Counted from the first letter of the stretch, positions 3,591-43,944 are shown. The stretch is 64,000 bases of DNA from Escherichia coli (GCF_016026235.1 NZ_CP065613.1); one strand, 5' to 3'. Translations and numbers: made by a program. The notes: generated by a model from the letters alone, not told the origin.

Positions 3591-3754
3591 AATGACATCC
3601 TCAAGTGATAAGTTAATTAACTCACCAGCAGAGGTGCTAATCTCATGGGTGGTGAGACGCACAGGGTTAGCACTACCGGTCACTCGAGAACCCGGCCAGC
3701 CTTGCGGCTGCCCCGCACGCCTCACCATAATTTGAATGTGGCTGTGCATTACGC

Positions 3755-3781
3755 ATAAAAAAACCGCTTCAGCGCGGTTAT
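3755..3781 (-). terminator. Rho-independent terminator (minus strand)
   Basis: Minus-strand hairpin AACCGC-GCTGAA-GCGGTT followed by TTTTTTT. Confidence 0.4.
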
Positions 3782-3905
3782 GCGCTCGAGTAACTTTCGG
3801 GGTGCTAATCCCGGCACCCGTTTTATGAGGTGCAGGTGCACTATAATTCCACCCGTTCTGGTTTTCAATAGCTACATTCAACATTTTCTCTTTCCTTTCA
3901 TCACC

Positions 3906-6470: not shown

Positions 6471-7619
6471 ATGGCCGCATTACCATACATGCAACTGTAC
6501 ATAGCTGATTACCTGGCTGACACCATGCATTTGTCAGCAGAGGAGCACGGCGCGTATTTGTTGCTGATGTTCAATTACTGGCAAACAGGAAAGCCAATAC
6601 CCAAAAACAGGTTGGCAAAAATTGCCCGTCTGACTAACGAGCGATGGGTTGATGTTGAACCATCCTTGCGGGAGTTTTTTTGTGATAACGGCGACGAATG
6701 GATGCATCTTCGGATTGAGGAAGATCTGGCATCTGTCAGAGAAAAATTAACCAAAAAATCAGCCGCAGGAAAAGCATCTGTTCAGGCCAGAAGAAGCAGA
6801 AAGGAAGCAGATGTTCAAACAAAACAAGAGAGAAATTTAACAGGTGTTCAAACAGATGTTGGAGTGATGTTCGAACATGATGCCAACACAAAGGCAACTA
6901 ATAAAGATACAGATAAAGATCTAAAAACAGATCTAACCCATCCCAAACCCTTCCCTTCCGGAAGGGAGTTTCGGGATTTTGTGGCTGGAGTGCTTGAGGG
7001 GAGATTATCTGGCGGTACTGCAGCGGAATTTTGTAATTCTGCGGTGGTTGCGTTGCAGGCTGCTGGCCTGGATGTCTGTCGTGAGTATCCGGTGCCAGAG
7101 CGTGGTGACGGTTGCGGAGGGCGGATTGATATCGTCGTGACTGACAGGAACGGTGTCCGGTGTGGGATCGAGCTTGACCGAAATTCTCCGCGACAGAAAT
7201 CACTGCTCAAAATCGGTGCTGTTGAAACCGGGATATGTGTCTTGCGGCGCAGTGATATCGCAAGGCACACCGAGCAGGGAATTCTGGTTATCGGTGGGGC
7301 TGTTCGCCAGAAAAAATTTGACCCGTTGTCAGTTGATCTGCCCGACTGGTTGCCAGAAACACTCTGGCATGAGTGGGTCCAGTTCAGGCAGGCATTGCGA
7401 AAACCGATTCGAACGGAGCAGGGCGCTAACGGGGCGATACGGGAACTGGAAAAATTCCGTCAGCAGGGTTTTACACCTGAGCAGGTGATTCGACACAGCA
7501 TCGCCAATGAATACCAGGGTCTGTTCGCGCCGAAAGGTGTTCGGCCTGAGACGTTGCTCCGACAGGTTAACACCGTCTCGTTGCCGGACAGTGCGATCCC
7601 GCCAGGCTTCAGGGGGTAA
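6471..7619 (+). CDS. Replication initiation protein (DUF1376/YdaU-like) with extended central region
   Basis: N-terminal YMQLYIADYLADTMHLSAEEHGAYLLLMFNYW resembles DUF1376; ATG at 6471 chosen over track start 6420. Confidence 0.55.
   Translation: MAALPYMQLYIADYLADTMHLSAEEHGAYLLLMFNYWQTGKPIPKNRLAKIARLTNERWVDVEPSLREFFCDNGDEWMHLRIEEDLASVREKLTKKSAAGKASVQARRSRKEADVQTKQERNLTGVQTDVGVMFEHDANTKATNKDTDKDLKTDLTHPKPFPSGREFRDFVAGVLEGRLSGGTAAEFCNSAVVALQAAGLDVCREYPVPERGDGCGGRIDIVVTDRNGVRCGIELDRNSPRQKSLLKIGAVETGICVLRRSDIARHTEQGILVIGGAVRQKKFDPLSVDLPDWLPETLWHEWVQFRQALRKPIRTEQGANGAIRELEKFRQQGFTPEQVIRHSIANEYQGLFAPKGVRPETLLRQVNTVSLPDSAIPPGFRG
6811..6935. repeat. Iteron-like repeats plus AT-rich tract inside replication gene (putative ori)
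   Basis: ATGTTCAAAC (6811), GTGTTCAAAC (6845), ATGTTCGAAC (6867) followed by AT-rich AATAAAGATACAGATAAAGATCTAAAAACAGATC. Confidence 0.4.
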
Positions 7620-7625
7620 CAGACC

Positions 7626-8372
7626 ATGAAAAATATTGCGACAGGAGGCGTTCTGGAGCGTATCCGCAGACTGACCCCACCACATGTAACCGCCCCATTC
7701 AGAACGGTTGCGGAGTGGCGCGAGTGGCAACTTGCTGAAGGCCAGAAACGTTGCGAGGAGATCAACCGCCTGAATCGTCAGTTGCGGGTGGAAAAAATCC
7801 TGAACCGCTCCGGCATCCAGCCGTTGCACCGGAAGTGTTCGTTTGCGAATTACCGGGCGCAGAACGACGGTCAGCGACATGCACTGAGTCAGGCGAAATC
7901 CATAGCTGACGAACTGATGACAGGCTGTACGAATTTTGTGTTCAGCGGTAAGCCCGGCACCGGAAAAAATCATCTTGCAGCCGCGATTGGCAACCGGCTG
8001 ATGGCGAAGGGGCGTAGCGTGATTATCGTCACCGTGTCCGATGTCATGAGCGTGTTGCATGAGAGCTACGACAACGGCAAATCCGGTGAAAAATTTTTAC
8101 AGGAGCTTTGTGGTGTTGACCTGCTGGTCCTGGATGAAATTGGCATGCAGCGGGATACGAAAAACGAGCAGGTGGTACTGAACCAGATTGTTGATCGCCG
8201 GACGGCATCGTTACGCGGTGTGGGGATGCTGACAAATATTAACCATGCAGCGATGAATACACTTCTCGGCGAGCGGGTGATGGATCGCATGGTCATGAAC
8301 GGCGGGCGCTGGGTGAATTTTAACTGGGAGAGCTGGCGTCCGAATGTTAGCCATTCGAGGGTTGTTAAGTAG
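7626..8372 (+). CDS. DnaC-like helicase loader (IstB-like AAA+ ATPase)
   Basis: Walker A GKPGTGKNHLAAAIG, Walker B LLVLDEIG; follows initiator gene. Confidence 0.75.
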   Translation: MKNIATGGVLERIRRLTPPHVTAPFRTVAEWREWQLAEGQKRCEEINRLNRQLRVEKILNRSGIQPLHRKCSFANYRAQNDGQRHALSQAKSIADELMTGCTNFVFSGKPGTGKNHLAAAIGNRLMAKGRSVIIVTVSDVMSVLHESYDNGKSGEKFLQELCGVDLLVLDEIGMQRDTKNEQVVLNQIVDRRTASLRGVGMLTNINHAAMNTLLGERVMDRMVMNGGRWVNFNWESWRPNVSHSRVVK

Positions 8373-8386
8373 TTTCAGGAGGATTT

Positions 8387-8809
8387 ATGGCGAAACCTTT
8401 TACTCCCGAACAGCGGGAAGAACTGAAGACGCGAATTGTGGAACTCGTGCATCAGGACGGTCGGGTCACGATTCGGCAGTTGTCAGATGAAACAGGTATC
8501 AGTCGTGCGTCTGTCGGTCGCTTATGCATGGAACTGGTCGCAAGTGGTGATGTATATAATTCTGGCTACGGGGTATTTCCCTCTGAACAGGCTCATAAAG
8601 ACTGGCAAAACGCCCGCAAAAAGCTATCGAGGGTAAAGGTGAAGAAACCGGTTGTGGTTGATCCTGACCTTATCTGGTCATTACCAGACGGAGAAATACG
8701 CCGCTACGACAGGCGCCTGAATATAATCTGTCGCGAGTGCCGGAAGAGCGAAGCTATGCAGCGCGTGCTGGCGTTTTATCAGGGGAAATTTCAGGAGGCG
8801 GTACTGTGA
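8387..8809 (+). CDS. hypothetical prophage protein (possible winged-helix)
   Basis: 140-aa ORF directly after dnaC-like gene. Confidence 0.45.
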   Translation: MAKPFTPEQREELKTRIVELVHQDGRVTIRQLSDETGISRASVGRLCMELVASGDVYNSGYGVFPSEQAHKDWQNARKKLSRVKVKKPVVVDPDLIWSLPDGEIRRYDRRLNIICRECRKSEAMQRVLAFYQGKFQEAVL

Positions 8810-8852: not shown

Positions 8853-10000
<1,148 letters not shown>

Positions 10001-12298: not shown

Positions 12299-12479
12299 AA
12301 GGAAACAAAACAGAAACAGCAATTGCCGTTACCTGTTGTTACCATGGCAAGTAAACGTATCTCAGGCGAGCGCATTGCGCCGTTCTGACGCAGATAAACT
12401 AGCCTGGATAGATGGTGCTGGCAATAAAAAATAGCGTTTTCTTATCGGTGTCGGTAAGATTGCTGCGGGTGCTTGAGGC

Positions 12480-12635
12480 TGTCTGCCTCGGGCATGTCAC
12501 TGTAAGGCAGACAGAGAAAAGCCCCAGTTAACATTACGCGTCCTGCAAGACGCTTAACATTAATCTGAGGCCCAATCTATGTCTCACAAATGTAGGTTAG
12601 CCTCTTACGTGCCGAAAGGCAAGGAGAAGCAGGCT
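12480..12635. promoter_or_regulatory. hok mRNA leader with stem-loops; expected location of sok antisense RNA
   Basis: Inverted repeat GTCTGCCT...AGGCAGAC (12481-12512); 9-bp hairpin GGCGGGAGA-GTAA-TCTCCCGCC downstream at 12800-12822. Confidence 0.35.
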
Positions 12636-12791
12636 ATGAAGCAGCAAAAGGCGATGTTAATCGCCCTGATCGTCATCTGTTTAACCGTCATTGTGACGGC
12701 ACTGGTAACGAGGAAAGACCTCTGCGAGGTACGAATCCGAACCGGCCAGACGGAGGTCGCTGTCTTCGTAGACTACGAATCTAGAGAGTAA
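12579..12791 (+). CDS. mok: mok-like in-frame extended reading frame overlapping hok
   Basis: 70-aa ORF ending at the hok stop, as MokC extends HokC in E. coli. Confidence 0.4.
   Translation: MSHKCRLASYVPKGKEKQAMKQQKAMLIALIVICLTVIVTALVTRKDLCEVRIRTGQTEVAVFVDYESRE
12636..12791 (+). CDS. hok: Hok/Gef-family type I toxin
   Basis: MKQQKAMLIALIVICLTVIVTALVTRKDLCEVRIRTGQTEVAVF is near-identical in pattern to HokD/RelF; AAGGAG Shine-Dalgarno. Confidence 0.8.
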   Translation: MKQQKAMLIALIVICLTVIVTALVTRKDLCEVRIRTGQTEVAVFVDYESRE

Positions 12792-13953: not shown

Positions 13954-14243
13954 TGGTGGATTTACGTAAAGCGGCGCGGGGGCAGATGTGCACCGTCAGA
14001 ATTCCTGGCTACTGCAATCACGATCCGGAAACGTCTGTGCTGGCGCATTACCGACTGGCGGGAACGTGCGGAACAGCGACAAAACCACACGATATGCAGG
14101 CGGCGATTGCCTGTAGCTCATGCCACGATTTAATCGACGGGCGGGTAAAAACAAGCGATTACACCAAAGAAGAATTACGCCTGATACATGCAGAAGGTGT
14201 TTTTCGCACGCAAGAAATCTGGAGAAAGGAAGGTTATTTATGA
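13953..14243 (+). CDS. Zinc-binding prophage protein (DUF1364-like)
   Basis: Cys/His pattern C..C...CSSCH; translationally coupled to neighbours. Confidence 0.45.
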   Translation: MVDLRKAARGQMCTVRIPGYCNHDPETSVLAHYRLAGTCGTATKPHDMQAAIACSSCHDLIDGRVKTSDYTKEELRLIHAEGVFRTQEIWRKEGYL

Positions 14244-14794
14244 TTTACCCAACAAATACAGGCAAAAGCGGGGAACACCTTCGTCTCACCACGCTGGAAA
14301 GTGTCTGGATTCAGGGAAAACTGCGCATGTGGGGGCGCTGGTCGTATATTGGCGGCGGTAAGACGGGGAATATGTTCAACCAGTTGTTGGCCTCTAAAAA
14401 GCTGACAAAAACGGCAATTAACGAGGCGCTCCGGAGGATGAAAAAAGCAGGTCTGGACAAACCTGAACTTGAGGCTTTTTTGCGGGATATGATCAACGGC
14501 AAGCAAAAAAGCTGGCTGGTGCATTGTACTGACGCAGAGGCGTTATGCATTGATCGGGTGATTAGTGAAGTGCTGGCAGAACACCCAGGATTGATTTGTA
14601 TCCTCCGGCAACGATATGAAGGGAGTGGGATGACTAAGCGAAAAATGGCTGAATTGCTGAATGATTCACACCCTGAGTGGTGTTATCGGACGTGTTGCAG
14701 TCGGGTTGATGTATGGCTAAATCTTGCTGAATATATGCTCTATCTACCGATGCGTGATGCATTCTCTTCCGGGGATCTAAAAACCGTCTGTTGA
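14240..14794 (+). CDS. Late-gene antitermination protein Q
   Basis: Position before tRNA/lysis region; AAGGAAGG Shine-Dalgarno; Cys-containing C-terminus. Confidence 0.55.
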   Translation: MIYPTNTGKSGEHLRLTTLESVWIQGKLRMWGRWSYIGGGKTGNMFNQLLASKKLTKTAINEALRRMKKAGLDKPELEAFLRDMINGKQKSWLVHCTDAEALCIDRVISEVLAEHPGLICILRQRYEGSGMTKRKMAELLNDSHPEWCYRTCCSRVDVWLNLAEYMLYLPMRDAFSSGDLKTVC

Positions 14795-14883
14795 CTCAAT
14801 CTGTTATCCGGGGCTATATTCCTCACGCGCCAGCAAAATCTGGCGTCGGGATTGGCGTCCCGGATGTTTACGGAGCGATATGA

Positions 14884-14904
14884 GACGCGCCCGCGTCTTT
14901 TTTC
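14884..14904 (+). terminator. Hairpin plus T-run downstream of Q (possible tR'-like terminator)
   Basis: GACGCG-CCC-GCGTC followed by TTTTTT. Confidence 0.4.
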
Positions 14905-15066
14905 ATATCGTTTGCACAGTCTCATTCGCGATTTATGGCGGGCTGTGTGGGGGAGCCGAAAGGCTCGCCGGTTTCCGTACCCGGTTACGCCAACCCTGCA
15001 CAGTTCGCCACCAGTTCGATTGGCGTCGTCGGTGGCGATAATTTCCAAATGTACGGAGTTATCGTT

Positions 15067-15624
15067 ATGACCACTCAAATCTCTGTTGAAACTCTCTCCC
15101 CGATCACCCATAACCAGATTCCTGTTATTACCACCGAACTTTTGGCGCAGCTTTACGGCACTGAGCCGGTGCGTATTCGCCAGAATCATCATGAGAACAA
15201 AGTACGCTTCGTTGAAGGGAAACACTTTTTCAAAGTTGTTGGTAATGACCTTAAAGAATTGCGGGTAGCTTTAAACTACTCACAAAATCCCATCTCTCCC
15301 AAAGCCCGCTCCCTCATCCTCTGGACAGAACGAGGCGCAGCACGCCACGCCAAAATGCTCGAAACCGATCAGGCGTGGGATGTGTTCGAAAAACTGGAAG
15401 ACTGCTATTTCAGTCAAAAGGATCCGTCAACGCCAGTTTCATGCCAGAAAAGTTACGACACGCGAGTTCTCTGTTATCAGAGAGGCGGTGTCACTGTTTC
15501 CACAATTCAGTTACGGGATGATGATATTGTTATTTCCCTTGAGTCATGGCTGGAACTGGCGAGAGCCAATGGTTGGTTTGTTGTTCGCAGAGATAAACTG
15601 GTGGAAAGGTTGATGCAGCTTTAA
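15067..15624 (+). CDS. ORF6N/Bro-N-like antirepressor-family protein
   Basis: ATG at 15067 after GGAG; N-terminal IPVITTELLAQLYG...KVRFVEGKHFFKV resembles ORF6N domain. Confidence 0.5.
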   Translation: MTTQISVETLSPITHNQIPVITTELLAQLYGTEPVRIRQNHHENKVRFVEGKHFFKVVGNDLKELRVALNYSQNPISPKARSLILWTERGAARHAKMLETDQAWDVFEKLEDCYFSQKDPSTPVSCQKSYDTRVLCYQRGGVTVSTIQLRDDDIVISLESWLELARANGWFVVRRDKLVERLMQL

Positions 15625-15832: not shown

Positions 15833-15909
15833 GGCCCTTTAGCTCAGTTGGTCAGAGCGAGCGACTCATAATCGCCAGGTCGCTGGTTCAAGTCCAGCAA
15901 GGGCCACCA
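15833..15909 (+). tRNA. tRNA with CAU anticodon (Met or Ile2, ileZ-like)
   Basis: Manual cloverleaf: acceptor GGCCCTT/AAGGGCC, anticodon loop CTCATAA, 3' CCA. Confidence 0.8.
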
Positions 15910-15910
15910 A

Positions 15911-15987
15911 CCACCACTAGCTCATCCGGATAGAGCATCAACCTTCTAAGTTGACGGTGCGAGGTTCGAGTCCTCGGTGGTGGGCCA
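15911..15987 (+). tRNA. tRNA-Arg (UCU)
   Basis: Acceptor CCACCAC/GTGGTGG, anticodon loop CTTCTAA, T-loop TTCGAGT, 3' CCA. Confidence 0.75.
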
Positions 15988-15989
15988 GC

Positions 15990-16065
<76 letters not shown>

Positions 16066-16068
16066 TAT

Positions 16069-16143
<75 letters not shown>

Positions 16144-17349: not shown

Positions 17350-17883
17350 ATGAGCGCAAAAATCAAATACGGCCTGTCGGCTGCTGTTCTGGCGCTGATT
17401 GCCGCAGGCGCGTCTGCTCCCCAGATACTTGACCAGTTTCTGAACGAAAAAGAGGGTAATCACACAACGGCATACCGTGATGGTTCTGGCATATGGACCA
17501 TCTGTCGTGGTGCCACAATGGTGGATGGTAAGCCTGTCATACCGGGAATGAAGCTGTCGAAGGAAAAATGTGACCAGGTTAACGCTATTGAACGTGATAA
17601 GGCGCTGGCATGGGTGGAGCGCAATATTAAAGTACCTCTGACCGAACCACAAAAAGCGGGTATAGCGTCATTTTGCCCCTATAACATTGGCCCCGGTAAG
17701 TGTTTCCCGTCGACGTTTTATAAGCGGCTGAATGCCGGTGATCGTAAGGGCGCATGCGAGGCGATTCGCTGGTGGATAAAAGATGTTGGGCGCGATTGCC
17801 GCATACGTTCAAATAACTGCTATGGACAGGTTATTCGTCGTGACCAGGAAAGCGCATTAGCCTGTTGGGGGATAGATCAATGA
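17350..17883 (+). CDS. SAR endolysin (lysozyme, R21-like)
   Basis: N-terminal signal-anchor-release segment [16 protein letters not shown] followed by lysozyme-like domain. Confidence 0.8.
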
Positions 17884-21820: not shown

Positions 21821-22049
21821 CTTCCGGAGGATGGTTGTGAACCAGAATGATATTGAAGCCATGATCCATCGTTATATCAATGCGGAAATGGCAGTGCTGG
21901 ACGGAAAGTCCATTACTTTTAATGGTCAGCAGATGACCATGGAAAACTTATCCGAGATCCGACAGGGGCGGCAGGAGTGGGAACGTCGCCTTGCGACTCT
22001 GGCTGCGCGGCGACGGGGGACGCCGGGCTATAAACTGGCGAGGTTCTGA
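21813..22049 (+). CDS. Head-tail joining protein W-like
   Basis: Size and C-terminus RRRGTPGYKLARF resemble lambda gpW; start uncertain. Confidence 0.5.
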   Translation: MGDFRRMVVNQNDIEAMIHRYINAEMAVLDGKSITFNGQQMTMENLSEIRQGRQEWERRLATLAARRRGTPGYKLARF

Positions 22050-23553
22050 TGGCAATTCTTGATGATGTGATTGGTGTTTTTTCACCTGGCTGGAAAGCTG
22101 CGAGATTGCGCTCAAGGGCATTAATTCGTGCCTATGAGGCAGTGAAGCCTACTCGTACACATAAAGCCCGGCGGGAAAATCGTTCTGCCGACCAGCTCAG
22201 TAAGTACGGTGCAGTTTCCCTGCGGGAGCAGGCTCGTTTTCTGGACATCAATCATGATCTGGTAATCGGTGTTTTCGACAAACTTGAGGAACGGGTGATT
22301 GGTGCAAAAGGGATCGTTGTCGAACCCCAGCCATTACTGAAGAACGGTGATATAGCCACAGAGCTGGCAATGATTATCCGTCGCTTGTGGGTGGAATGGT
22401 CTGTCAGTCCGGATGTGACCGGGCAGTATACGCGCCCCATGCTCGAGCGTCTGCTGCTGCGTACCTGGTTACGTGATGGTGAAGTGTTTGCCCAGCTGGT
22501 TCGTGGTGCCGGCGGCGGGCTGGTGCGGACTGCTGGCGTGCCTTTCTGGATCGAGGCAATGGAGCCGGATTTTGTGCCCATGCTCAGTGATGAATCTGTG
22601 GGGTTGAATCAGGGTGTTTTTCTGGATGACTGGGGCAGACCGAAAAAATACCTGGTTTATAAAAATCATCCGACTACCGGGCGGCTGAGTGATACCAAAG
22701 AGATCGTTGCCGAAAATATGGTGCATCTGAAATTTACCCGTCGTCTGCATCAGACGCGTGGTACATCCATGTTGTCAGGTGTGCTGATGCGGATCAGTGC
22801 GCTTAAGGAATATGAAGATGCTGAGCTGACAGCGGCGCGTGTTGCTGCGGCTCTGGGGCTGTATATCCGTAAAGGAGATGGGCAGGATTATGAAGACGCC
22901 ACGATAAATAAAGATAATGACCGGGAACTGCATATCACCCCTGGCATTATTTATGACGATTTGCGCAAGGGGAAGATATTGGCATGGTCAAATCTGATCG
23001 GCCCAATCCTAACCTTGAAACTTTTCGTAACGGGCAGCTGCGTGCGGTGGCCGCAGGCAGTCGTATGAGTTTTTCCAGTGCGGCGCGCAATTACAACGGT
23101 ACCTACAGCGCTCAGCGACAGGAGCTGGTCGAGTCCACTGACGGGTATCTGATCCTGCAGGACTGCTTTATTGGTGCTGTAACCCGTCCCGTGTACCGGA
23201 CGTGGCTGAACATGGTGGTAGCAGCAGGTCTGCTGAAAATCCCGTCGGATGTGGATATGAAAACGTTGTGTAACGCAACATATTCCGGTCCGGTCATGCC
23301 GTGGATTGATCCGGTTAAGGAGGCTGAGGCCTGGAAAATCCAGATTCGCGGTGGAGCGGCGACAGAATCAGACTGGGTGCGAGCAGGTGGGCGTAATCCG
23401 GATGATGTCAAACGTCGGCGCAAGGCTGAAATTGATGAAAACCGCAAGCTGGGTCTGATATTTGATACCGATCCGGCCAGTGATAAAGGAGGCAGCAGTG
23501 TCGCAACGAAACGACAGGAGCCGCAGCACACCGACGGCCAGTCCGAAGAATAA
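22049..23553 (+). pseudogene. Portal protein, frameshifted at G-run 22969-22972
   Basis: Two overlapping ORFs (22049..23068, 22984..23553); one extra G makes a single reading frame of about 500 aa; position between W and protease. Confidence 0.6.
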
Positions 23554-23566
23554 TTCCTGGTTCAGG

Positions 23567-25557
23567 ATGCAGGCAGGTCACCAGAGTGACGCGGATATTT
23601 ATATTTATGACGAGATTGGTTTCTGGGGTGTTACGGCGAAGCAGTTTATCAGCGATCTGAATGCACTGGGCGATATCACCCACATTAATCTCCATATCAA
23701 TTCACCGGGTGGCGATGTCTTTGAAGGCATCGCCATTTTTAATGCACTGAAAACACATGGTGCGTCCATTACCGTTTATGTCGACGGTGTGGCGGCATCA
23801 ATGGCGTCGGTCATTGCGATGGTGGGAAACCCGGTCATTATGCCGGAAAACACCTTCATGATGATTCATAAACCATTTGGCTTTACGGGCGGTGATGCGG
23901 AGGACATGCGCACCTATGCCGACCTGCTCGATAAAGTTGAGGCGGTTCTGTTACCCGCTTATGCACAGAAAACCGGGAAAACCACCGATGAAGTTGCTGC
24001 CATGCTGGCGGATGAGACCTGGATGTCCGGTGCCGAATGTCTGGCACATGGATTTGCTGATCAGGTGACGCCAGCCGTTAAGGCAATGGCATGTATTCAG
24101 TCAAAACGTACAGAGGAATTTAAAAAGATGCCGGAATCCATTCGAAACATGATTACTCCGCCACGCAACAGTGCAACGCGTGAACCTGAAAACAAAAATA
24201 CTGCATCTCAGACACAGGAGCAGACTACGGCTCAGGTTGCCACAACCGCGACCACCACAAATGCACCTTCCGCAGATGAAAGCAGTATCCGTGCGCAGGT
24301 ACTGGCAGAGCAAAAAGCACGTGTGAGTGGTATTAATGAACTGTTTGGTATGTTTGGCGGGCGTTATCAGACATTGCAGGCCAGTTGTCTTTCCGATCCG
24401 GAGTGCTCGCTTGAGCAGGCCCGTGAGAAATTACTTAACGAAATGGGTAAGGAATTTTCACCATCAAATAAAAATACCCCGGCCCATATTTATGCCGGAA
24501 ACGGTAATTTTGTGGGGGACGGGATCCGCCAGGCGCTGATGGCGCGTGCCGGGTTTGAAAAAACTGAACGTGATAATGTCTACAACGGGATGACCCTGCG
24601 TGAATATGCCCGTATGTCACTGACTGAACGGGGTATTGGGGTTTCCGGTTATAACCCGATGCAGATGGTCGGGGCAGCGTTCACACACAGTACGTCTGAC
24701 TTCGGTAATATTCTGCTGGATGTTGCGAACAAAGCCATTCTGCAGGGCTGGGAAGATGCCCCTGAAACCTATGAACAGTGGACGCGGAAAGGTCAGCTGT
24801 CTGATTTTAAAATTGCCCATCGTGTGGGTATGGGGGCTTCAGTGCTCTGCGTCAGGTGCGTGAAGGAGCGGAATATAAATACGTTACTACCGGAGATAAA
24901 CAGGCCACGATTGCACTGGCGACCTATGGTGAACTGTTCAGTATCACCCGTCAGGCCATTATCAACGATGATCTGAATATGCTGACCGATGTCCCGATGA
25001 AACTGGGCCGTGCGGCAAAATCCACTATTGCCGATCTGGTTTATGCCATTCTGACGTCTAACCCGAAAATCTCCACAGATAATGTAAGTCTGTTCGATAA
25101 AGCGAAACATGCAAACGTACTGGAGAGCGCTGCAATGGACGTGGCATCGCTGGATAAAGCCCGCCAGTTGATGCGTGTTCAGAAAGAGGGTGAGCGTCAT
25201 CTGAATATTCGTCCTGCGTTCGTACTGGTACCGACGGCGATGGAGTCTGTTGCTAACCAGGTCATTCGCTCCTCAAGTGTCAAGGGGGCTGACATTAACG
25301 CCGGTATTATTAACCCGGTGAAAGATTTTGCGACCGTTATTGCAGAGCCTCGTCTTGATGATAACAGCCAGACCACCTTCTACCTGGCTGCGTCCAAAGG
25401 CTCCGATACGATTGAAGTGGCTTATCTCAACGGTGTGGATACGCCATATATTGATCAGATGGAGGGCTTCAGTGTGGATGGCGTGACAACGAAAGTGCGT
25501 ATTGACGCTGGTGTCGCGCCAGTTGATCACCGCGGTCTGGTGAAATGTACGGCGTAA
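23567..25557 (+). pseudogene. Prohead protease (ClpP/S49-like) - scaffold - major capsid fusion, frameshifted at G-run 24832-24836
   Basis: N-terminal ClpP-like GDVFEGIAIFNALKTHGASITVYVDGVAASMASVIA; capsid-like C-terminal part continues in ORF 24856..25557; one extra G restores continuity. Confidence 0.6.
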
Positions 25558-28425: not shown

Positions 28426-28763
28426 CGCGGGAAATGCAGTTTGTCATGCGGCTTGCCCGGGAGTTCCGGCGGGCAGACTGGCGGCGGATGCTGTCGGAAA
28501 TGTCGGCCACTGAGCTTGGTGAGTGGGGCGATTATTTCCGGATGCAGAGCTTCAGTGATGTGTGGATGGATGCGCAGTTTGCCTCGCTGAAGGCATTGAT
28601 CGTGAGAATGGTGTCCGGCAGCAGCGATGCTGCGGTGGCTGATTTCAGCCTTTTACCGGAAGAGAACGGGATACCGGAGCGAACGGACGAAGAACTGATG
28701 CATCTTGGGGAAGGTATTTCCGGAGGTGTGCGTTATGGACCAGATAGCCAACCTGGTCATTGA
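28410..28763 (+). CDS. T-frame of tail assembly chaperone GT (expressed as G-T fusion by -1 programmed frameshift)
   Basis: -1 frame opens at 28410 and overlaps the end of G; heptamer GGAAAAG at 28413-28419 sits where lambda has GGGAAAG. Confidence 0.55.
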   Translation, partial: AGKVLTREMQFVMRLAREFRRADWRRMLSEMSATELGEWGDYFRMQSFSDVWMDAQFASLKALIVRMVSGSSDAAVADFSLLPEENGIPERTDEELMHLGEGISGGVRYGPDSQPGH

Positions 28764-31700
28764 TTTGGGGATTGATGCGGCAGAGTTTAAAAATGAAATT
28801 CCCCGTATCAAAAACCTTCTGAATGGTGCAGCCAGCGATGCAGAACGGTCTTCTGCCCGTATGCAGCGTTTTATGGAGCGTCAGACTCAGGCCGCCCGGC
28901 AGACAACGCAGGCGGCTTCTTCGGCTGCAACAGCCGCATCCGTCCATGCGCAGACGGTGGAGAAGAACGCACAGGCTCATGAACGCATGGCCCGCGAGGT
29001 GGAGAAAACCCGCCAGCGCATGGAGGCGCTGAGCCAGAAAATGCGCGAGGAACAGGCGCAGGCCAGGGCACTGGCGGAGGCGCAGGATAAAGCGGCTGCC
29101 GCCTTTTATCGCCAGATTGACAGTGTGAAACAGGCCGGTGCGGGGCTTCAGGAATTACAGCGTATTCAGCAGCAGATCCGACAGGCCAGAAACAGTGGCG
29201 GGGTTGGTCAGCAGGATTATCTGGCGCTGATTTCGGAGATCACGGCGAAAACCCGTGCCCTGACGCAGGCAGAGGAACAGGCCACCCGGCAGAAAGCGGC
29301 GTTTATCCGCCAGCTTAAAGAGCAGGCAACCCGCCAGAATCTGTCGTCTTCTGAGTTGCTTCGCGCCAGGGCGGCTCAGCTGGGGGTAAGCAGTGCTGCA
29401 GAAGTGTATATCCGCAAAATGGAGCGGGCAGGAAAAGCCACACATTCGCTGGGGCTGAAAAGTGCGGCAGCCCGGCGGGAGCTGGGGGTGTTAATCAGTC
29501 AGATGGCGCGCGGCAATTTTGGTGCGCTGAGGGGATCCGGGATAACGCTGGCTAACCGTGCCGGATGGACAGGCGCACTGATGTCGCCGAAAGGCATGAT
29601 GACTGGCGGCGTTATTGGCGGACTTGTCGCGGCGGTCCTGGGTCTGGGTAAAGCCTGGCATGACGGCCGGAAGGAGGGCGAGGAATTTAACCGTCAGCTG
29701 GCGCTGACGGGACATTATGCCGGTGTCACTGTCGGGCAGTTGTGGAAACTCAGCCGGGCCATATCCGGGAATGGTATCACGCAACATGCGGCAGCCGGTG
29801 CGCTGGCACAGGTGGTGGGCAGTGGGGCATTTCATGGAAACGATATTGGTATGGTGGCGAAAGCTGCCGCACAGATGGAGCGATCGGTTGGCCAGTCGGT
29901 CAGCGATACCATAAATCAGTTTAAGCGGCTGAAGGATGATCCTGTAAATGCCGCGAAGGCGCTGGACAATGCGCTGCATTTTTTGACTGCCACTCAGCTT
30001 GAGCAGATACGCGTCCTTGGGGAGCAGGGGCGGTCCAGTGATGCGGCCCGGATCGCCATGTCTGCGCTGGCAGAGGAAACCGGTAAACGCACATCTGATA
30101 TTGATAATAATCTCAATGCGCTGGGTAGTACGCTGCAAACCTTGTCTGACTGGTGGAAGCAGTTCTGGGATGCGGCCATGAATATTGGTCGTGAAGACTC
30201 GCTGGATGCGCAGATTGATGCGTTACAGGAAAAAATTCAGCGCGCGAAAAAATATCCGTGGACAAACGCCTCCACACAGGTGGAGTACGATCAGCAGCGT
30301 CTTAACGATCTTCAGGAGAAAAAACGCCGGAAGGATTTGCAGGATGCAAAAGCGCAGGCAGAACGGAATTACCAGGAGCAACAGAAACGCCGGAATGCTG
30401 AAAATGCCGCGCTGAACCGGATGAATGAAACGGAAGCTGCACGACATCAGCGGGAAATTGCGCGTATTAATGCCATGCAGTACGCCGACCAGGCTGTCAG
30501 GGATGCGGCGATACAGCGTGAAAATGAACGTTACGAAAAAGCCATTAAGAAAAATACACGGGCAACCCGTAATGATGAGGCCACCCGGTTATTGCTGCAG
30601 TACAGTCAGCAGCAGGCACAGGTGGAAGGGCAGATTGCTGCTGCCAGACAGTCAGCAGGCATTGCCACTGAAAGGATGACTGAAGCGCATAAACAGCTTC
30701 TGGCCCTGCAGCAGCGCATCAGCGACCTGGGCGGGAAAAAGCTGACGGCAGATGAAAAGAGTGTGCTGGCCCGTAAGAATGAGCTGATTCAGGCGCTGAC
30801 GCTGCTGGATGTGAAACAGCAGGAGCTGCAGAAACAGACAGCGCTTAACGACCTGAGAAAAAAAACGGTTCAGCTGACCAGCCAGCTGGCAGACAAAGAA
30901 CGTGCACTGCGTGAGCAGCACAATCTGGATATTGCCACTGCAGGTATGGGGATAAGCAGCGGCAGCGCTACCAGGCACAGTTGCGCATCCGGCAGGAATA
31001 CCGGCAACAGTTGCAACAGCTTGAGAATGACAGTCGCCAGAAAGGCACTTACGGGACGGAGGACTACCGGAGGGCTGAGGAGGTGCTGAAGGGGAGCCTG
31101 AAGCGACAACTGAATGAAAACAAACGCTACTGGCAGGAACTGGAAGTGGCGCAGGGCGACTGGAAAAACGGTGCCATGCGGGCGTTTCAGAATTTTACGG
31201 CGGATGCGGATAATGCGGCGGGAACGGCAGAACAGATGTTTACAGTGGCATTCAGCAGTGCCGGTAATGCACTGGCGACATTCTGTACCACCGGTAAGCT
31301 GAATTTTAAATCCTTTACCTCTTCCCTGTTGTCAGATATGGCCAGAATTATGGCACAGATGGCCATGATGCAGGCGGTAAAGGGCGTCGGTTCTTTATTC
31401 GGCTTCACGACTAATGCTGATGGCGGTGTTTACCAGTCTGCTGATTTGAGTCGCTACAGTGGCACGGTGGTTAACCGTCCGACGTTTTTTGCTTTTGCAA
31501 AAGGCGCGGGTGTGATGGGGGAAGCGGGACCTGAAGCCATTCTGCCACTGCGTCGCGGTGCTGATGGTAAGCTGGGGGTTGTGGCGGATACTGGTGGTTC
31601 AGGCATGGTGATGTTTGCCCCGCAGTACAACATTGAGATCAATAACGATGGCACGAACGGGCAGATAGGTCCGGCTGCCCTGAAGGTGGTTTATGACCTC

Positions 31701-31775
31701 GGGAAAAAAGCGGCCGCGGACTTTATGCAACAGCAGGCCCGTGATGGTGGCCGGTTAAGTGGAGCATACCGGTAA
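28735..31775 (+). pseudogene. Tail tape measure protein H, frameshifted at G-run 30948-30951
   Basis: Long Ala/Gln-rich coiled-coil ORF 28705..31089 continues in ORF 30981..31775; one extra G gives a continuous protein of about 1010 aa. Confidence 0.7.
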
Positions 31776-34163: not shown

Positions 34164-37575
<3,412 letters not shown>

Positions 37576-37644
37576 AATTGTTATAACCCATATAAGGGCA
37601 CCAGAAATGGTGCCTTTTTTATTGCAGAAAAGCGAGAGGTAATT

Positions 37645-38244
37645 ATGCGTAAACTTTATGCCGCCATTTTGTCCGCAGCCATTTGTCTGGCCGTATCCGG
37701 TGCGCCTGCATGGGCATCTGAACATCAGTCCACGCTGAGCGCGGGGTATCTTCATGCCTCGACGAACGTTCCCGGCAGCGATGATCTTAACGGGATTAAC
37801 GTGAAATACCGTTATGAGTTTACGGACACACTGGGGCTGGTGACGTCATTCAGCTATGCAGGAGACAAGAATCGCCAGCTTACCCGTTACAGCGATACCC
37901 GCTGGCATGAAGATTCCGTGCGTAACCGCTGGTTCAGCGTGATGGTGGGGCCGTCTGTGCGCGTGAATGAATGGTTCAGCGCGTATGCGATGGCGGGTAT
38001 GGCTTACAGCCGTGTGTCGACTTTCTCCGGGGATTATCTCCGCGTAACTGACAACAAGGGGAAAACGCACGACGTGCTGACCGGAAGTGATGACGGTCGC
38101 CACAGCAACACGTCTCTGGCGTGGGGAGCTGGCGTGCAGTTTAACCCGACCGAATCCGTGGCCATTGACCTTGCTTATGAAGGTTCCGGCAGTGGCGACT
38201 GGCGCACTGACGGTTTCATCGTGGGTGTCGGTTATAAGTTCTGA
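37645..38244 (+). CDS. lom: Lom-like outer membrane protein (Ail/OmpX family)
   Basis: Signal peptide, beta-barrel pattern ending GYKF; position between J and stf as in lambda. Confidence 0.75.
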
Positions 38245-38270
38245 TTAGCCAGGTAACACAGTGTTATGAC

Positions 38271-38296
38271 AGCCCGCTGGTTCAGGCGGGCTTTTT
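38271..38296 (+). terminator. Rho-independent terminator after lom
   Basis: AGCCCGC-TGGTTCAG-GCGGGCT followed by TTTTT. Confidence 0.55.
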
Positions 38297-38307
38297 GTGG
38301 GGTGAAT

Positions 38308-39720
38308 ATGGCAGTAAAGATTTCAGGTGTACTGAAAGATGGGGCGGGTAAACCTGTCGTAAATTGTGCGATTGAACTGCGGGCCAGAAGAACCAGTCCG
38401 ACCGTTGTGGCACACGTTGTTGCCACTTGCGTGACGGACAATAACGGTGCTTATGTGATTGAGGCTGAGCCGGGGTATTACGAGGTTGCGCTTCACTGTA
38501 ACGGCTGGCAGCCAACCCGTGTCGGGGATATTGATGTGGCACCGACTGATGCACCGGGGACACTGAACGCGTTTCTGAATGCACCAAAGGATGGTGATTT
38601 ACGTCCGGAGGTGATGAAGCGCTTTGAGGAAATGGTGGCGCAGGCGCAGCAGAGTGCCGGGGCTGCAGCCGGAAACGCACAGCAGACGGCGCAGAATGTG
38701 GCGGCAGCCGCAACGGCCCGTGATGATGCACAACGTTTTGCGGAGAATGCCAGACAGGATGCAGTTGCCACTGCAGAGGACAGAAAGGCCACTGCGGAAG
38801 ACGTGAAAAGCACGGGGAAAAACGCCGTCTTATCCGGTCAGCGTGCACAGGCAGCCGCAGGTTATGCCCGCGCAGCAGAACAGGCCAAAAATGACATTGA
38901 TGCTGCGCTGACCGGCACTCTGAAAACGGCTAACCATCTGTCAGAAATCGCAGCAGCAGGCGAAAAGGCACAACAGAAGTCCCGGGATAATCTGGGGCTG
39001 AAAAGTGCGGCCACGATGGAAGCACAGAGCGACATTTACGACCGGACAAAAGGCCGTCTGGCGATACCCGGCGCATTCGGCTTTGGGTGTGCTTTTCTGC
39101 CTGAAGATGTTATCCGTTTTGACACTAAGAGTGATTTCCTGGCCTGGGTAAGGAATGCGCTGCCAGGTGAGTATTCCGTTGCTGGCCGCCTGGGCATCAT
39201 ACCCGACACACGGTTTGAAGGGGTGCTCAGCATCCGGTGGACTGATGCACGCCCTGAGACAACAGAACCGCGGTACAGAGCCAAATCCCTTACTTTTTAC
39301 GGCATTAACGGCCCCATTTATCACACCCGCTACTGCTACTGGCCCATATCCAGACTGACTGACTGGGTGAAAATAAATATAACCACAGAAGATATTATTT
39401 ACAGAATCGTGGCGAGCTCTGTCTGCAACAGATGGGGAGACCCTGACATTGGCGGGCTGATTATTGCTGCGTACCAGGGAGAAGCTGACGGTGATAAAGT
39501 CATCAGACTTGTCAGGGGGCAGTCATACAGAGGCTCACGACTGGGACCGGTGGGGATTTCAGTGCCCAGTACTCCCACCGGAACGCATATAGCATACCCA
39601 CAATTTTTCATTACGGGATGTTCAGAGCATTCATTACCGGGGTCATATTGCGCCCTGTCCGGGGTGCCGGATGCACATGTCTCTGGCGCAATGCCCGGGC
39701 TTTTTATTCGCACATCGTGA
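38308..39720 (+). CDS. Side tail fibre protein (Stf-like)
   Basis: ATG at 38308; N-terminal prophage tail-fibre domain, Ala/Gln-rich central region. Confidence 0.55.
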   Translation: MAVKISGVLKDGAGKPVVNCAIELRARRTSPTVVAHVVATCVTDNNGAYVIEAEPGYYEVALHCNGWQPTRVGDIDVAPTDAPGTLNAFLNAPKDGDLRPEVMKRFEEMVAQAQQSAGAAAGNAQQTAQNVAAAATARDDAQRFAENARQDAVATAEDRKATAEDVKSTGKNAVLSGQRAQAAAGYARAAEQAKNDIDAALTGTLKTANHLSEIAAAGEKAQQKSRDNLGLKSAATMEAQSDIYDRTKGRLAIPGAFGFGCAFLPEDVIRFDTKSDFLAWVRNALPGEYSVAGRLGIIPDTRFEGVLSIRWTDARPETTEPRYRAKSLTFYGINGPIYHTRYCYWPISRLTDWVKINITTEDIIYRIVASSVCNRWGDPDIGGLIIAAYQGEADGDKVIRLVRGQSYRGSRLGPVGISVPSTPTGTHIAYPQFFITGCSEHSLPGSYCALSGVPDAHVSGAMPGLFIRTS

Positions 39721-39730
39721 GGAATGCACC

Positions 39731-40294
39731 GTGGAAATTAAAAAAATCATTAATCCCCGTTATACCGAAAGTGGCGCAGTAGACTGTGACGTTTTTTTTG
39801 ACGACAGGGACCAGGCAGTTCCCTACACAGCCACCGCTGATGATGTCGCACCGACGGGTCAGCAAATCTGGCAGGAACTGCAAAGTGGCAAATGGGGTGA
39901 GATAGCCCCATTCACTGTGACACCAGAAATGCTGGAAGCGGCCAGAGAGGCCAGACGTCAGGAAATTGAAGCATGGCGCGCAGAACAGGAGGCGAAGCCG
40001 TTCACGTTTGAATGGAACGGTCGTATCTGGAATGCTGGTCCCGACTCACTGGGCCGCCTGTCCCCGGTAGTCATGCTGGCAAAATCTGTCACAGCACAAA
40101 CACATATGGCGTGGAGCGATGCCGATAATCAGCAGGTGAAACTGTCGATGCCGGAACTGGAAGAACTGGCGGCAGCAATGGTGCAGGCGCAGGTCGATCG
40201 CAACGATGAGATTTATCGCCGTCAGCGGGAGCTGAAGGAAGAGCTGAATAGTCTGAAGGATTTGAATTCGGTTAGGAATTTTATCGTGGAATAA
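39731..40294 (+). CDS. hypothetical protein following stf (possible tail fibre assembly/chaperone)
   Basis: GTG at 39731 after GAGGAA; function inferred only from position. Confidence 0.35.
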   Translation: MEIKKIINPRYTESGAVDCDVFFDDRDQAVPYTATADDVAPTGQQIWQELQSGKWGEIAPFTVTPEMLEAAREARRQEIEAWRAEQEAKPFTFEWNGRIWNAGPDSLGRLSPVVMLAKSVTAQTHMAWSDADNQQVKLSMPELEELAAAMVQAQVDRNDEIYRRQRELKEELNSLKDLNSVRNFIVE

Positions 40295-40494
40295 CAGAAG
40301 CTGCGGCACGTCGTATGCAGGAACGTGCCGCGGTTGGCTGGTAAACTTTCGATAGTGCGAGTATTGAATGATTTCTAGGCGTTATCGATTTTACGTATTT
40401 TTTGCATGATAGAATTCGTACCTCCTCCCAACGACCTTCCATGGCTTTCCGGACTTCTGTAGGCTGGCGGACGATGCTGTCCTCGGATGTTGTG

Positions 40495-41352
40495 CTAATT
40501 GGGTGATAACAGATCCTGTGTATGGGCGTTTCCCTTTGTGCGTGCGTTGATGCTGGTAACGGTAAACGTCATGATGAACACGACCGCGAATAAGACGACA
40601 ATCGTCGGAGCTGGTGCGCTGTCGATAAAAAAGGACAGCCAGACACCAGTCATTGACACTATTACCGATATGCCAGTCGCCAGTAGGAGCGCAATATGAA
40701 AGCGTTGTGTCAGGAGTACTGCAATGGCGCCAGGCGCAATGAGCAGAGAAATAGAGAGAATGATACCTACTGCTTTCAGCGTCGCCACAATGGTCAGGGA
40801 AACCATGCACAGCAGCCCATAATGCAGCCATCTCGTATGCAAACCGCTTACCTGCGCCTGTTGATAATCAAAGCTGAACAGCAAAAAATCCCGCCATTTT
40901 ACGCTAATAACAAGTGTAACCAGCCCGGCAATAATCACCGTCTGGATTATATCGCCGATGGTTATCCCGAGCATGTCGCCGAAAAGAATATGGTCAAGAT
41001 GTACGTCTGGTTTGATTGCAATATACAAGATCAGACCTGCGGCAAACATGCCAGAAAAAACAATCCCCATAACTGTATCTTGCTTGATTCGGCTGTTGTC
41101 TTTCAGGTATCCCGTCGCCACCGCGCAGAATACTCCGGCGACGAATGCCCCTGTAGCCAGAGGTAACCCCAGAATCCAGGTAAGCACGATGCCAGGAAAA
41201 ACCGCATGACTCATCGCGTCACCCATCAGTGCCCAACCTTTCAGGACCAGAAAGACCGACAGCAGCGCACAGGGTATGGAAACTACCAGTGAAATCAGCA
41301 GTGCGTGACTCATAAAGGTGAACTGCAGTGGCTCCAGTAATAATGCCATCAT
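40495..41352 (-). CDS. sitD: Mn/Fe ABC transporter permease SitD
   Basis: 285-aa polytopic membrane protein; last gene of sitABCD; 4-bp overlap with sitC. Confidence 0.85.
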   Translation of the reverse strand: MMALLLEPLQFTFMSHALLISLVVSIPCALLSVFLVLKGWALMGDAMSHAVFPGIVLTWILGLPLATGAFVAGVFCAVATGYLKDNSRIKQDTVMGIVFSGMFAAGLILYIAIKPDVHLDHILFGDMLGITIGDIIQTVIIAGLVTLVISVKWRDFLLFSFDYQQAQVSGLHTRWLHYGLLCMVSLTIVATLKAVGIILSISLLIAPGAIAVLLTQRFHIALLLATGISVIVSMTGVWLSFFIDSAPAPTIVVLFAVVFIMTFTVTSINARTKGNAHTQDLLSPN

Positions 41353-42206
41353 GAGCGATCCTCCAGCGCTTTATGCGCACGCCGACGATTTGCCAAAAGT
41401 CCATGGGTGGGCGCAAATACAAATGCTAAAAGAAACAGCAGTGTCTGCGCCACCACGATGATTCCACCTGTCGCGCCGTCCAGAAAGTAACTGACCCACG
41501 CGCCGAGGAAACTGGTTACACTGCCAATAGTTACAGCAATTATGAGCAGGCGGGGAAAACGATCGGTTAACAACCATGCTGTTGCACCGGGAGTCACCAC
41601 CAGACAGATCACCAGAAAGGCACCAACCGTTTGCAGCGCCGCAACGGTCGAAACCGACAGCAGGGTGAAGAAGAGGATTTTTAATCTGCCCGGATGTAAT
41701 CCAATAGCACGGGCGTGATTCTCGTCGAAAAAGGTCACCATAAGATCTTTCCATTTGAAAAAAAGCACGATGATCGAGAGAATGCCAATGATAGTGAGTT
41801 GCAGGATATCCGCCGGATCGATTGCCAGAATATTGCCCAGGACGATGGTCTGAATGTTCACGGATGTCGGGTTCAATGACACCATAAACAGCCCCAGGCC
41901 AAAAAAGGACGAGAAGATCAGGCCGATGATGGCATCTTCTTTTAAGCGGGTGCGTTGGTTAAGAAACAGCATGCTGCCCGCTGCCAGTCCGCCGGAAAAG
42001 AAGGCTCCCAGAGAAAACGGAAGCCCCAGCATATATGCCCCCGCAACACCCGGGACAATAGAGTGCGACAGCGCATCGCCAATCAGCGACCAGCCTTTTA
42101 GCATCAGATAGCATGACAGGAAAGCGCAGAGACCGCCGACCATTGCCGAGACCCACATCGCATTGAGCATATATTCATAGCTGAAGGGTTCCAGTAGCAC
42201 GTTCAT
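41349..42206 (-). CDS. sitC: Mn/Fe ABC transporter permease SitC
   Basis: 285-aa ABC-3 family permease. Confidence 0.85.
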
Positions 42207-43030
42207 CTTGCTTCCCTCTGCACCGCTGACGGTCGATGTGCCACAAAAGGGCGTTCATCGTCAGTAATAATGCTTTCTTCCGAGCCGTTAAGTGTGACAT
42301 GGCGCAGTACGCCGCTAAAAGCCAGCTCCAGGTTCTCGGCTGTAAAAGTGGTGTCTGTCGGCCCGCTTGCCAGGACGGTGCCTTTGACCATGACCGTATA
42401 ATCGCAAAATGTCGTGACTGAGCCGAGATTGTGCGTTGAGACAAGCATCGTTTTGCCTTCCGCGCGTAACTCCCTCAACAGGCTGATGATTTTCGCTTCG
42501 GTTTTCACATCAACGCCGGTAAAAGGTTCATCCAGCAGGATCACATCACCCTGCTGTGCAATCGCTCTCGCCAGAAAGACGCGTTTCTTTTGTCCACCGG
42601 AAAGCTCGCCGATTTGACGATGGCGAAAATCCACCATATCGACACGTTCCAGCGCATCGGTGACAATCTGACGATCCCTCTTTTTGGCTATACGCAACAT
42701 ACCCATATGCCCATAGCGGCCCATCATCACCACATCTTCCACCAGTACAGGAAATGACCAGTCAACCTCTTCTGACTGAGGGACGTAGGCAACCAGGTTT
42801 TTCTGTAGCGCCTGTCGCGTGGGAATACCCAGAACAGATATCTTTCCGCTGGTCAGACGCACAAATCCCATAATCGCTTTAAACAACGTCGATTTTCCGG
42901 AACCGTTTACCCCAACCAGAGCGGCAATAGATCCACTTGGTACTGTGAAGGATGCATCGCGCAGTGCTGTGTGCCCGTTACGCCAGGTGACAGTAACATC
43001 ATTAACGACAATGCCTGCAGATTGCATCAT
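42203..43030 (-). CDS. sitB: Mn/Fe ABC transporter ATP-binding protein SitB
   Basis: Walker [10 protein letters not shown], signature LSGGQKKR, Walker B ILLDEP. Confidence 0.85.
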
Positions 43031-43944
43031 TATTTCTCCCTTTTCCCGGCTTTAATTCCCTGTACCAGCGTACTGGTAGTAACCTTAAGAAGGTCGATAT
43101 ACGTAGGTACCGGGCCGTTTTCTGTGCTCAGGGAATCGACATAGAGCACACCGCCGTAGTGTGCGCCGGTTTCACGCGCAACCTGACGCGCTGGTTTATC
43201 GGAAATCGTACTCTCGCTAAAGACTGCCGGGATATGATTTTTCTTAACTATATCAACAACCTTACGTACCTGCTGCGGTGTTCCTTGTTGATCGGCATTA
43301 ATCGGCCACAGATAAAGCTCTTTTAGCCCCAAATCGCGTGCGAGATAAGAAAAAGCCCCTTCACTGGTGACCATCCATCGCTGATTCTCAGGGAGTTCCG
43401 TAATCTGCTTACGCAGGGGGGCAAGGGTTTGGGTAATCTTGGCTTTATAAGTATCGGCATTACGTTGGTAGGTTTGTGCATTTGCCGGATCGTATTTTAT
43501 CAACGCATCACGAATATTATCGACGTAAATCAGAGCATTATCTGGCGACATCCATGCATGGGGATTAGGTTTGCCCTCATAGGGTCCTTCGGTGATCCCT
43601 ACTGGCGTCACACCCGAAGAGACAATTACTTCTGGAACCCCATTGAGATGCTGGTAAAAGCGTTGGAACCACAATTCCAGATTCATACCATTGGCGAGAA
43701 TCAGTTGTGCCCCCTGCGCACGTTTAATATCGCCAGGGGTAGGCTGATACTCATGAATTTCTGCACCAGGCTTGGTTATGGATGAGACTTCTGCAGCATC
43801 TCCAGCCACGTTTTTGGCCATATCCGCGATGATGGTAAATGTTGTAATGACCTTGAATTTTTCAGTTGCACTTGCCTGAAATGCGATCGAGCAGGTGAGG
43901 GCGAGGCACCCCAAGAGCATGGTTACTTTTTTTATTGAGTGCAT
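43030..43944 (-). CDS. sitA: Periplasmic Mn/Fe-binding protein SitA
   Basis: 304 aa, signal peptide, cluster A-I substrate-binding family. Confidence 0.85.

Follow-up and report, generated by a model that had tools for sequence, protein, structure and literature searches.

An intact lom cassette bracketed by two conserved terminator-like hairpins between J and stf of a Rac-site prophage in Escherichia coli

The window, the whole stretch of 64,000 nucleotides of Escherichia coli DNA that was analysed (GCF_016026235.1, NZ_CP065613.1), carries a lambdoid prophage whose tail genes J and stf are separated by a short open reading frame on the same strand. A sequence-only reading had described this frame as an Ail/Lom-family outer-membrane gene with a signal peptide, inserted as a moron in the tail-fibre region and followed by its own terminator. 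The features of the locus are as follows.

34167-37575, + strand: J, a pseudogene in two open reading frames (34167-36632 and 36748-37575), with Pfam J domains on both
37594-37617, with a T-tract at 37615-37623, + strand: J-distal hairpin terminator, core GGGCACC-AGAAAT-GGTGCC followed by TTTTTTATT
37624-37644, + strand: lom leader of 21 nt, GCAGAAAAGCGAGAGGTAATT, with the Shine-Dalgarno sequence GAGAGG at 37634-37639, 5 nt before the ATG
37645-38244, + strand: lom CDS, 199 aa, stop included, identified by PF06316, PHROG 108, AF2 and PDB matches
38271-38296, + strand: lom terminator-like hairpin, AGCCCGCT-GGTTCA-GGCGGGCT plus a T-run at 38292-38296, recognised by scan, folding and conservation
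38308-39720, + strand: stf, side tail fibre, 470 aa, with PF08400 phage_tail_N on residues 1-131

The product of the open reading frame at 37645 matched the Pfam family Ail_Lom (PF06316) from end to end, residues 1-199 of 199 aligning with profile positions 1-199 (E 1.2e-119; 397.7 bits against a cutoff of 23), and it also matched the general outer-membrane protein β-barrel model and PHROG 108, ‘Lom outer membrane protein’ (E 7e-110). In a sequence search of the PDB, lambda Lom (9wso_C) ranked at the top (E 3.5e-48), and OmpX and Ail came next at E ~1e-17. These full-length family matches, together with the N-terminus described below, bear out the assignment to the Ail/Lom family. Transfer of Rck or OmpX function to the lom product was rejected, as its scores lie far under the cutoffs of the NCBIfam equivalog models for Rck (NF011777; 114.2 versus 258 bits) and OmpX (NF006917; 94.7 versus 176 bits); the specific function is thus not transferable, and serum resistance or invasion cannot be assumed. 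Judged by these profiles, the lom product is a relative of both Rck and OmpX and the equivalent of neither. In the sense of Juhala and Hendrix, a moron is an extra, autonomously expressed cassette in a phage genome. We are confident that the object described here is an intact lom, a moron that lambdoid prophages carry as an accessory cassette and whose product is a small barrel of the Ail/OmpX type. The gene is long known and extremely common, and the observation is correct.

The N-terminus of the lom product has the anatomy of a Sec signal, with a basic n-region (MRK), a hydrophobic core and a c-region. As read from the sequence, the signal peptide covers aa 1-24 (37645-37716) and is predicted to be cleaved at an A-x-A site between AWA and SE, giving a mature protein that starts with SEHQ; the mature N-termini of Ail and OmpX in the PDB align with lom residues 25-27. 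No lipobox was found in the product, since Cys14 is preceded by Ile and is not conserved in the alignment of homologues. An AF2 model built from 20 homologues (mean pLDDT 76.5) has an N-terminal helix at residues 2-18 and eight strands (29-38, 48-58, 63-81, 86-108, 111-135, 141-166, 172-181 and 190-198). When this model was compared by Foldseek with a PDB set of entries to April 2026 that is without 9wso, its best neighbours were Ail (3qrc and 3qra; E 1.6e-11, target TM 0.75), and OmpX (1qj9; E 2.1e-10) was also among the top matches. Mature Lom is thereby predicted to be an 8-stranded antiparallel outer-membrane β-barrel. The C-terminal sequence is ...GVGYKF, and its final F, which is invariant in 20 aligned homologues, constitutes the aromatic β-signal for BAM. 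Chain C of 9wso belongs to a solved structure containing lambda Lom, which could be informative about what Lom does; a sequence search identified neither J nor Stf among the other chains, and a literature search found no paper on 9wso.

The neighbouring genes confirm that lom lies between J and stf, as the sequence-only reading had placed it, with J domains upstream and phage_tail_N downstream. The J frame moves from 0 to 2 to 1 through two shifts near 36618-36680, a region of ~60 nt in which lambda-like J protein sequence continues across the frames of the three-frame translation. The open reading frame at 36748-37575, with Phage_Tail_Tip and the Ig_GpJ_C receptor-binding domain, is thus the C-terminus of J. 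In close relatives, including E. coli VL40 and 53638, J is intact (1164-1165 aa). As a result of the frameshifts, the prophage in the window is defective for tail assembly. Downstream, the phage_tail_N domain identifies the open reading frame from 38308 as stf. Its start, MAVKISGVLKDG, with the ATG at 38308 behind GGGGTGA, is conserved in lambda, 434 and VL40. A 484-aa open reading frame from 38266 was rejected as stf because it runs through the lom terminator and the conserved start is at 38308; gene callers in some genomes use a long stf form of 485 aa.

The flanking genes uspF, ompN, MicC, ydbK, ldhA and ydbH, and direct comparison, place the prophage at the K-12 Rac site. K-12 Rac carries lomR (b4570) at the same chromosomal site, in the prophage right arm beside uspF-ompN-micC-ydbK. 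The two genes are 100% identical over 214 nt and 96% over 304 nt, and they share the terminator and the stf start. However, the 5’ end of lomR is missing and IS5 interrupts the gene, whereas the copy in the window is complete. With the host prophage at the Rac site and defective, the window copy represents the intact allele of K-12 lomR. Past the tail fibre genes the two prophages differ, the window having sitABCD where K-12 has pinR-ynaE-ynaM. The sitDCBA genes for an iron/manganese ABC transporter (40495-43944, - strand) directly follow a tfa-like DUF4376 gene and lie before the point near 44153, 152 nt inside the Rac right end, at which K-12 homology resumes. By this position the sit operon is cargo in the right arm of the Rac-site prophage, and E. 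coli VL40 is alike. In E. coli 53638 and FDAARGOS genomes (L017, L019 and L020, ~6650-8600), identical Lom, stf and DUF4376 genes are followed not by sitABCD but by an ipaH-type effector (LRR_TTSS plus a NEL E3 ligase). From these arrangements, the part of the prophage right arm beyond the tail fibre genes seems to hold exchangeable cargo.

Several other elements of the prophage were recorded. An isrK plus C4-antisense RNA module (Rfam RF01394, RF01695 and RF03163) is present in two copies: one at 3645-3833 (- strand), adjoining a Rha/Ash-type gene (3045-3884), and one at 14814-15015 (+ strand), just after a Q-like antiterminator (14120-14794) and overlapping the start of an ORF6N-domain gene (14935-15624). 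Past the Q region and before the lysis genes (lysozyme, 17350-17883) lies a cluster of four tRNA genes at 15833-16143 (+ strand; Met-CAT, Arg-TCT, Thr-TGT and Gly-TCC). A sok antitoxin RNA at 12467-12641 (+ strand; Rfam RF01794, 118 bits) points to a hok/sok-type toxin-antitoxin locus in the prophage. The early region contains an IS-type transposase with an rve integrase core (8853-9671, - strand), and the list of open reading frames suggests split structural genes in the portal/protease (22049-24976) and tape-measure (28705-31775) regions. The transposase and the split genes are consistent with general prophage decay.

Downstream of lom, a terminator scan placed a stem of 8 bp, 6 of them GC pairs, at 38271-38292, with TTTTT behind it. 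Its minimum free energy is -16 kcal/mol (z = -2.1), and 10 of 200 shuffled sequences fold equally well. The bare terminator pattern is within chance, with 4 sites observed and 4.1 expected in 4.1 kb; the terminator is taken as real because of its placement on the coding strand in the 63-nt gap between lom and stf and because of its conservation, not because of the pattern alone. The hairpin is common to 7 of 8 other aligned lom-bearing loci, and to K-12 Rac in addition; the loci with the hairpin are lambda, 434, 2G7b, 640R1, SPF_0923, Stx2_499, E. coli VL40 and K-12 Rac. Across relatives it changes only by one-sided substitutions from G-C to G-U, by which pairing is preserved. In PhiR49_2 the lom-stf gap has unrelated sequence, and another hairpin with a T-run takes its place (-20.5 kcal/mol, z = -3.8). 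The records of phages 434, Ayreon and mEp460 annotate the downstream hairpin as ‘terminator’. It directly precedes the stf ribosome-binding site, GTGGGGTGAAT-ATG, and forms the right boundary of the cassette. The stem and T-run, the cassette-internal position and the conservation all agree with the earlier claim of a Rho-independent terminator at 38271-38296, and an ‘own terminator’ of lom is supported by these sequence features.

The second hairpin, which the sequence-only reading had not included, lies between J and lom. The terminator scan gives this J-distal hairpin 10 pairs, and it folds with -15.6 kcal/mol (z = -3.5), a value equalled by 0 of 200 shuffles; it is stronger than the downstream one. 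Among 7 distinct sequences of this hairpin, 8 pairs are standard in every cell (100%), and three pairs show compensatory double changes (A-U to G-C, C-G to U-A and A-U to U-A). The covariation score was reached by 0 of 500 shuffles, and slid controls dropped to 39-61% pairing. In lambda, a stem of unrelated sequence is found where the J-distal hairpin sits, and in phage 434 the J-distal hairpin is annotated as a terminator. It is the resident hairpin of the J-stf intergenic region, as it is present in lom-less phages too, and it forms the left boundary of the cassette. To judge from their folding and conservation, lom is bracketed by two conserved terminator-like hairpins. That either of them is a described sRNA was rejected, with Rfam giving no match at or near threshold in 37300-38500; the best score, 21.8 versus 55 bits for STnc50, lay over the J hairpin.

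The limits of the cassette were obtained from empty sites; a distant-mode search of the phage collection brought to light lambdoid phages with only ~60 nt between the J 3’ end and the stf 5’ end. Three lom-less phages, PhiR11_1_star, Lambda_2E9 and PhiR57_1, have J, one hairpin and stf in direct succession, and the junctions are precise to within one T. With the junction marked by a double slash, the empty site reads J-stop ... GGGCRCCAG(A/C)AATGGYGCC TTTTTTATT // TGTGGAGTGA(A/G)TATG(stf), and the filled site reads ... GGYGCC TTTTTTATT // GCAGAAAAGCGAGAGGTAATT ATG-lom-TGA ... AGCCCGCYGGTTCAGGCGGGC TTTTT(T) // GTGGGGTGAATATG(stf). This comparison sets the cassette limits, from the T-tract of the J hairpin to the stf ribosome-binding site. 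The cassette occupies ~37624-38296 and comprises 672-673 nt, made up of the leader, the open reading frame, a 26-nt spacer and the terminator. The leader is identical in 8 lom-bearing loci (7 complete ones and the truncated PPompW copy), similar in lambda and Stx2_499, and missing from the three empty sites; the ribosome-binding site within it is annotated in phage 434. The relatives without lom, in which the junction of J, hairpin and stf is uninterrupted, directly substantiate the proposed moron status of lom. Both junctions fall in T-runs, so the data fit insertion at a terminator and deletion between two T-tracts alike. That lom stands out as a compositional island was rejected, since its GC content of ~55% does not set it apart from its neighbours (lom, 0.54-0.57; J 3’ end, 0.45-0.50; stf, 0.53-0.59). 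In phage D2 (OM475427; L007 500-690), a lambda-type lom is reduced to its final ~120 nt, which, with the terminator, are fused behind a broken J, and in PPompW_132418 (L013 1307-1633) lom is cut to 108 codons, with an espO effector gene further on. By comparison of these sequences, the J-lom-stf junction is a rearrangement hot spot.

Among the closest known relatives is phage 434 (UMO75287.1, OL657226.1), whose DNA is 98.3% identical from the 3’ end of J through lom to the 5’ end of stf. The two Lom proteins differ at 2 aa (R56L and L176I); leader, ribosome-binding site and upstream hairpin are identical, and the downstream hairpin is one base off, a C to T change that leaves a G-U pair. The 434 region is annotated as ‘Ail/PagC/OmpX porin’ with two terminators. 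Phage 434 is viable, whereas the prophage that harbours lom in the window is chromosomal and defective, its J being frameshifted. Phage 434, Stx phages, cdtI- and mEp460-type lambdoid phages and Rac form, together with the window, a group of 199-aa alleles. In the case of lambda, the earlier reading that lom is arranged as in that phage stands for the position and not for the likeness of the proteins. Lambda Lom (NP_040601.1, 9wso chain C) has the same J-stf position, and the cassette plan is shared (hairpin, short leader with GAGAGGT, open reading frame, near-identical 3’ end, terminator and stf start), but the two proteins, although of the same family and conserved in the C-terminal third, are only 45% identical in amino acids and differ in length (206 aa in lambda, with a longer loop 1, versus 199 aa). 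The last ~100 nt of lom, the terminator and the stf start are ~96% identical to lambda, which, set against 45% for the whole protein, indicates a typical mosaic boundary. More distant members of the same Pfam family are the chromosomal or plasmid-borne 8-stranded barrels Ail (Yersinia), OmpX (E. coli) and Rck/PagC (Salmonella), to which the window Lom is ~28% identical and compared to which it is ~30-40 residues longer in the outward hairpins.

Pairwise dN/dS values of lom against six 199-aa alleles are 0.10-0.25, indicating purifying selection. Amino acid differences among the alleles are concentrated in three places, namely the signal peptide, loop 1 (residues 37-49) and the outward part of strand 3 (residues 73-81), and loop 4 and strand 8 vary hardly or not at all. 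Of 5426 complete E. coli genomes, 4703 (87%) have a match to the 673-nt cassette, at a median of 2 and a maximum of 14 places per genome, and in 4087 of the matching genomes at least 80% of the query is covered. Tens of thousands of E. coli sequences are subsumed under the Lom cluster representatives, and the exact Lom protein is also found in E. coli 53638 and several FDAARGOS genomes.

The terminator had been taken as consistent with expression of lom from the prophage in lysogens. The sequence only weakly supports such expression, because the presence of a terminator does not imply a promoter. The cassette contributes only 21 nt before the lom ATG, too short for a promoter. A sigma-70 consensus scan of the + strand over 36500-40600 gave 0 sites, and in the 500 nt upstream of lom the best position weight matrix score was 8.7 bits, compared to a mean best score of 9.35 ± 1.85 in shuffled sequences; comparison with lambda by the same approach yielded no positionally conserved candidate. 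A promoter at the junction of T-tract and leader was rejected after manual inspection, which found only poor -35 and -10 candidates. A promoter of its own, as a moron in the strict sense would carry, was thus not recognised in the lom cassette, although one that is weak or not of the sigma-70 type may be present. A literature search found no mapped lom transcription start. With no recognisable promoter and a conserved terminator just upstream, lysogen expression is an assumption taken from the literature on homologues. During induction, lom is part of the Q-antiterminated late transcript in lambda. In the whole window, the strongest sigma-70-like site on the + strand is at 14791-14826 (TTGACT-18-TATATT, 15.0 bits), at the end of the Q-like gene; it is probably the late promoter pR’ that would transcribe J-lom-stf on induction. 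In a defective prophage, however, late-operon expression may no longer occur.

Family knowledge and these features suggest how the cassette may work. The Lom precursor would leave the cytoplasm by the Sec route and lose its signal peptide behind Ala24; periplasmic chaperones would then escort it to BAM, which would insert it by way of the C-terminal aromatic β-signal. The resulting 8-stranded barrel would expose four surface loops, with the long β-hairpins of strands 3/4 and 5/6 pointing outward, and by analogy to homologues this surface part may serve adhesion to host epithelial cells and not phage growth. A role of lambda Lom in adhesion is reported (PMC3594210, citing Vica Pacheco 1997); this specific function is demonstrated only for lambda Lom, 45% identical, which limits its extension to the protein described here. 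On induction, a Q-antiterminated late transcript would ignore both hairpins and read through lom. In the repressed prophage, lom could be transcribed only from a promoter, weak and unmapped, that coincides with the J hairpin or precedes it, and the downstream terminator would keep such a transcript out of stf.

This account has to be weighed against others. Since lom is embedded in the late tail operon and shares its strand, and since its cassette is promoterless with a conserved terminator directly upstream, it may instead be a late lytic gene with a phage-centred role (e.g., altering the envelope of the dying cell), its hairpins serving as operon punctuation or for RNA stability and its expression in lysogens not being meaningful. 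The expression literature is divided on this point. In one lambda microarray study lom went undetected in lysogens, and its promoter was described as uncharacterised, with little known of it (PMC2147009), whereas lom and bor are listed elsewhere among the lambda genes expressed in lysogens (PMC7067206), and qPCR and RNA-seq reportedly showed the lom of phi24B to be expressed constitutively and independently of induction (PMC3342100, PMC4651098). Furthermore, lambda forms plaques without lom, which is non-essential with an EOP of 0.88 (PMC10695390), and the lom in the window is intact and under purifying selection though the J of this prophage is already broken. We therefore regard a purely lytic role as unlikely. 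The broken J also invites the view that lom here is a functionless leftover of a decaying prophage, intact only through its shortness and the recency of decay. The two frameshifts in J, the apparently split structural genes, the IS transposase inside the prophage and the 5’-truncated, IS5-split lomR of K-12 are in line with it, and 2 lesions in 3.4 kb of J lead to an expectation of only ~0.35 in 0.6 kb, for which reason the intactness of lom alone is not significant. What makes this view very unlikely is that the frame is complete with the conserved positions of the family kept, that the functional allele of phage 434 is only 2 aa away (dN/dS 0.10), that the ribosome-binding site and both hairpins are intact, and that the exact protein recurs in several other genomes.

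The hairpin at 38271-38296 might also serve stf, as a 5’ element (a processing site, a stabiliser or a translational context), and not primarily be a terminator of lom. In lom-less phages stf likewise follows a hairpin, a T-run and GTGGAGTGAATATG, an arrangement before the stf Shine-Dalgarno sequence that is kept whichever hairpin is present. The anatomy of the hairpin is nevertheless that of a canonical intrinsic terminator, its sequence is unrelated to that of the J hairpin, and it travels with lom, being kept beside the lom 3’ remnant in phage D2. The two roles are also compatible with each other, and a primary role in stf appears highly improbable. A further reading treats lom as a promoter-less ‘half-moron’ that either came in or is repeatedly being lost by exchange between T-tracts belonging to two intrinsic terminators. 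The expression reported for lysogens would in that case have one of two sources: a cryptic promoter within the 3’ end of J, for which the conserved J-distal hairpin would be a leaky or regulated attenuator, or a promoter at the junction that overlaps the hairpin. We consider this reading distinctly unlikely, but if true, the T-tracts of terminators would be both the insertion point and the expression switch of such cassettes. The preferred reading remains that of an intact lom moron encoding an Ail/OmpX-type barrel.

The lom gene is a textbook lysogenic-conversion gene of lambda, and as this allele occurs in most E. coli genomes, the finding is of little importance beyond annotation. A covarying upstream terminator, the limits of the cassette and the lack of a recognisable promoter are additions to the earlier reading. 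The empty-site comparison provides base-precise limits for a cassette in which a terminator is carried and a promoter is not recognisable, and this boundary result puts more sharply the old question of which start site lom transcription uses in lysogens. For the source strain, the presence of an intact lom and of prophage-borne sitABCD, where K-12 has a broken lomR, may bear on adhesion and virulence phenotypes.
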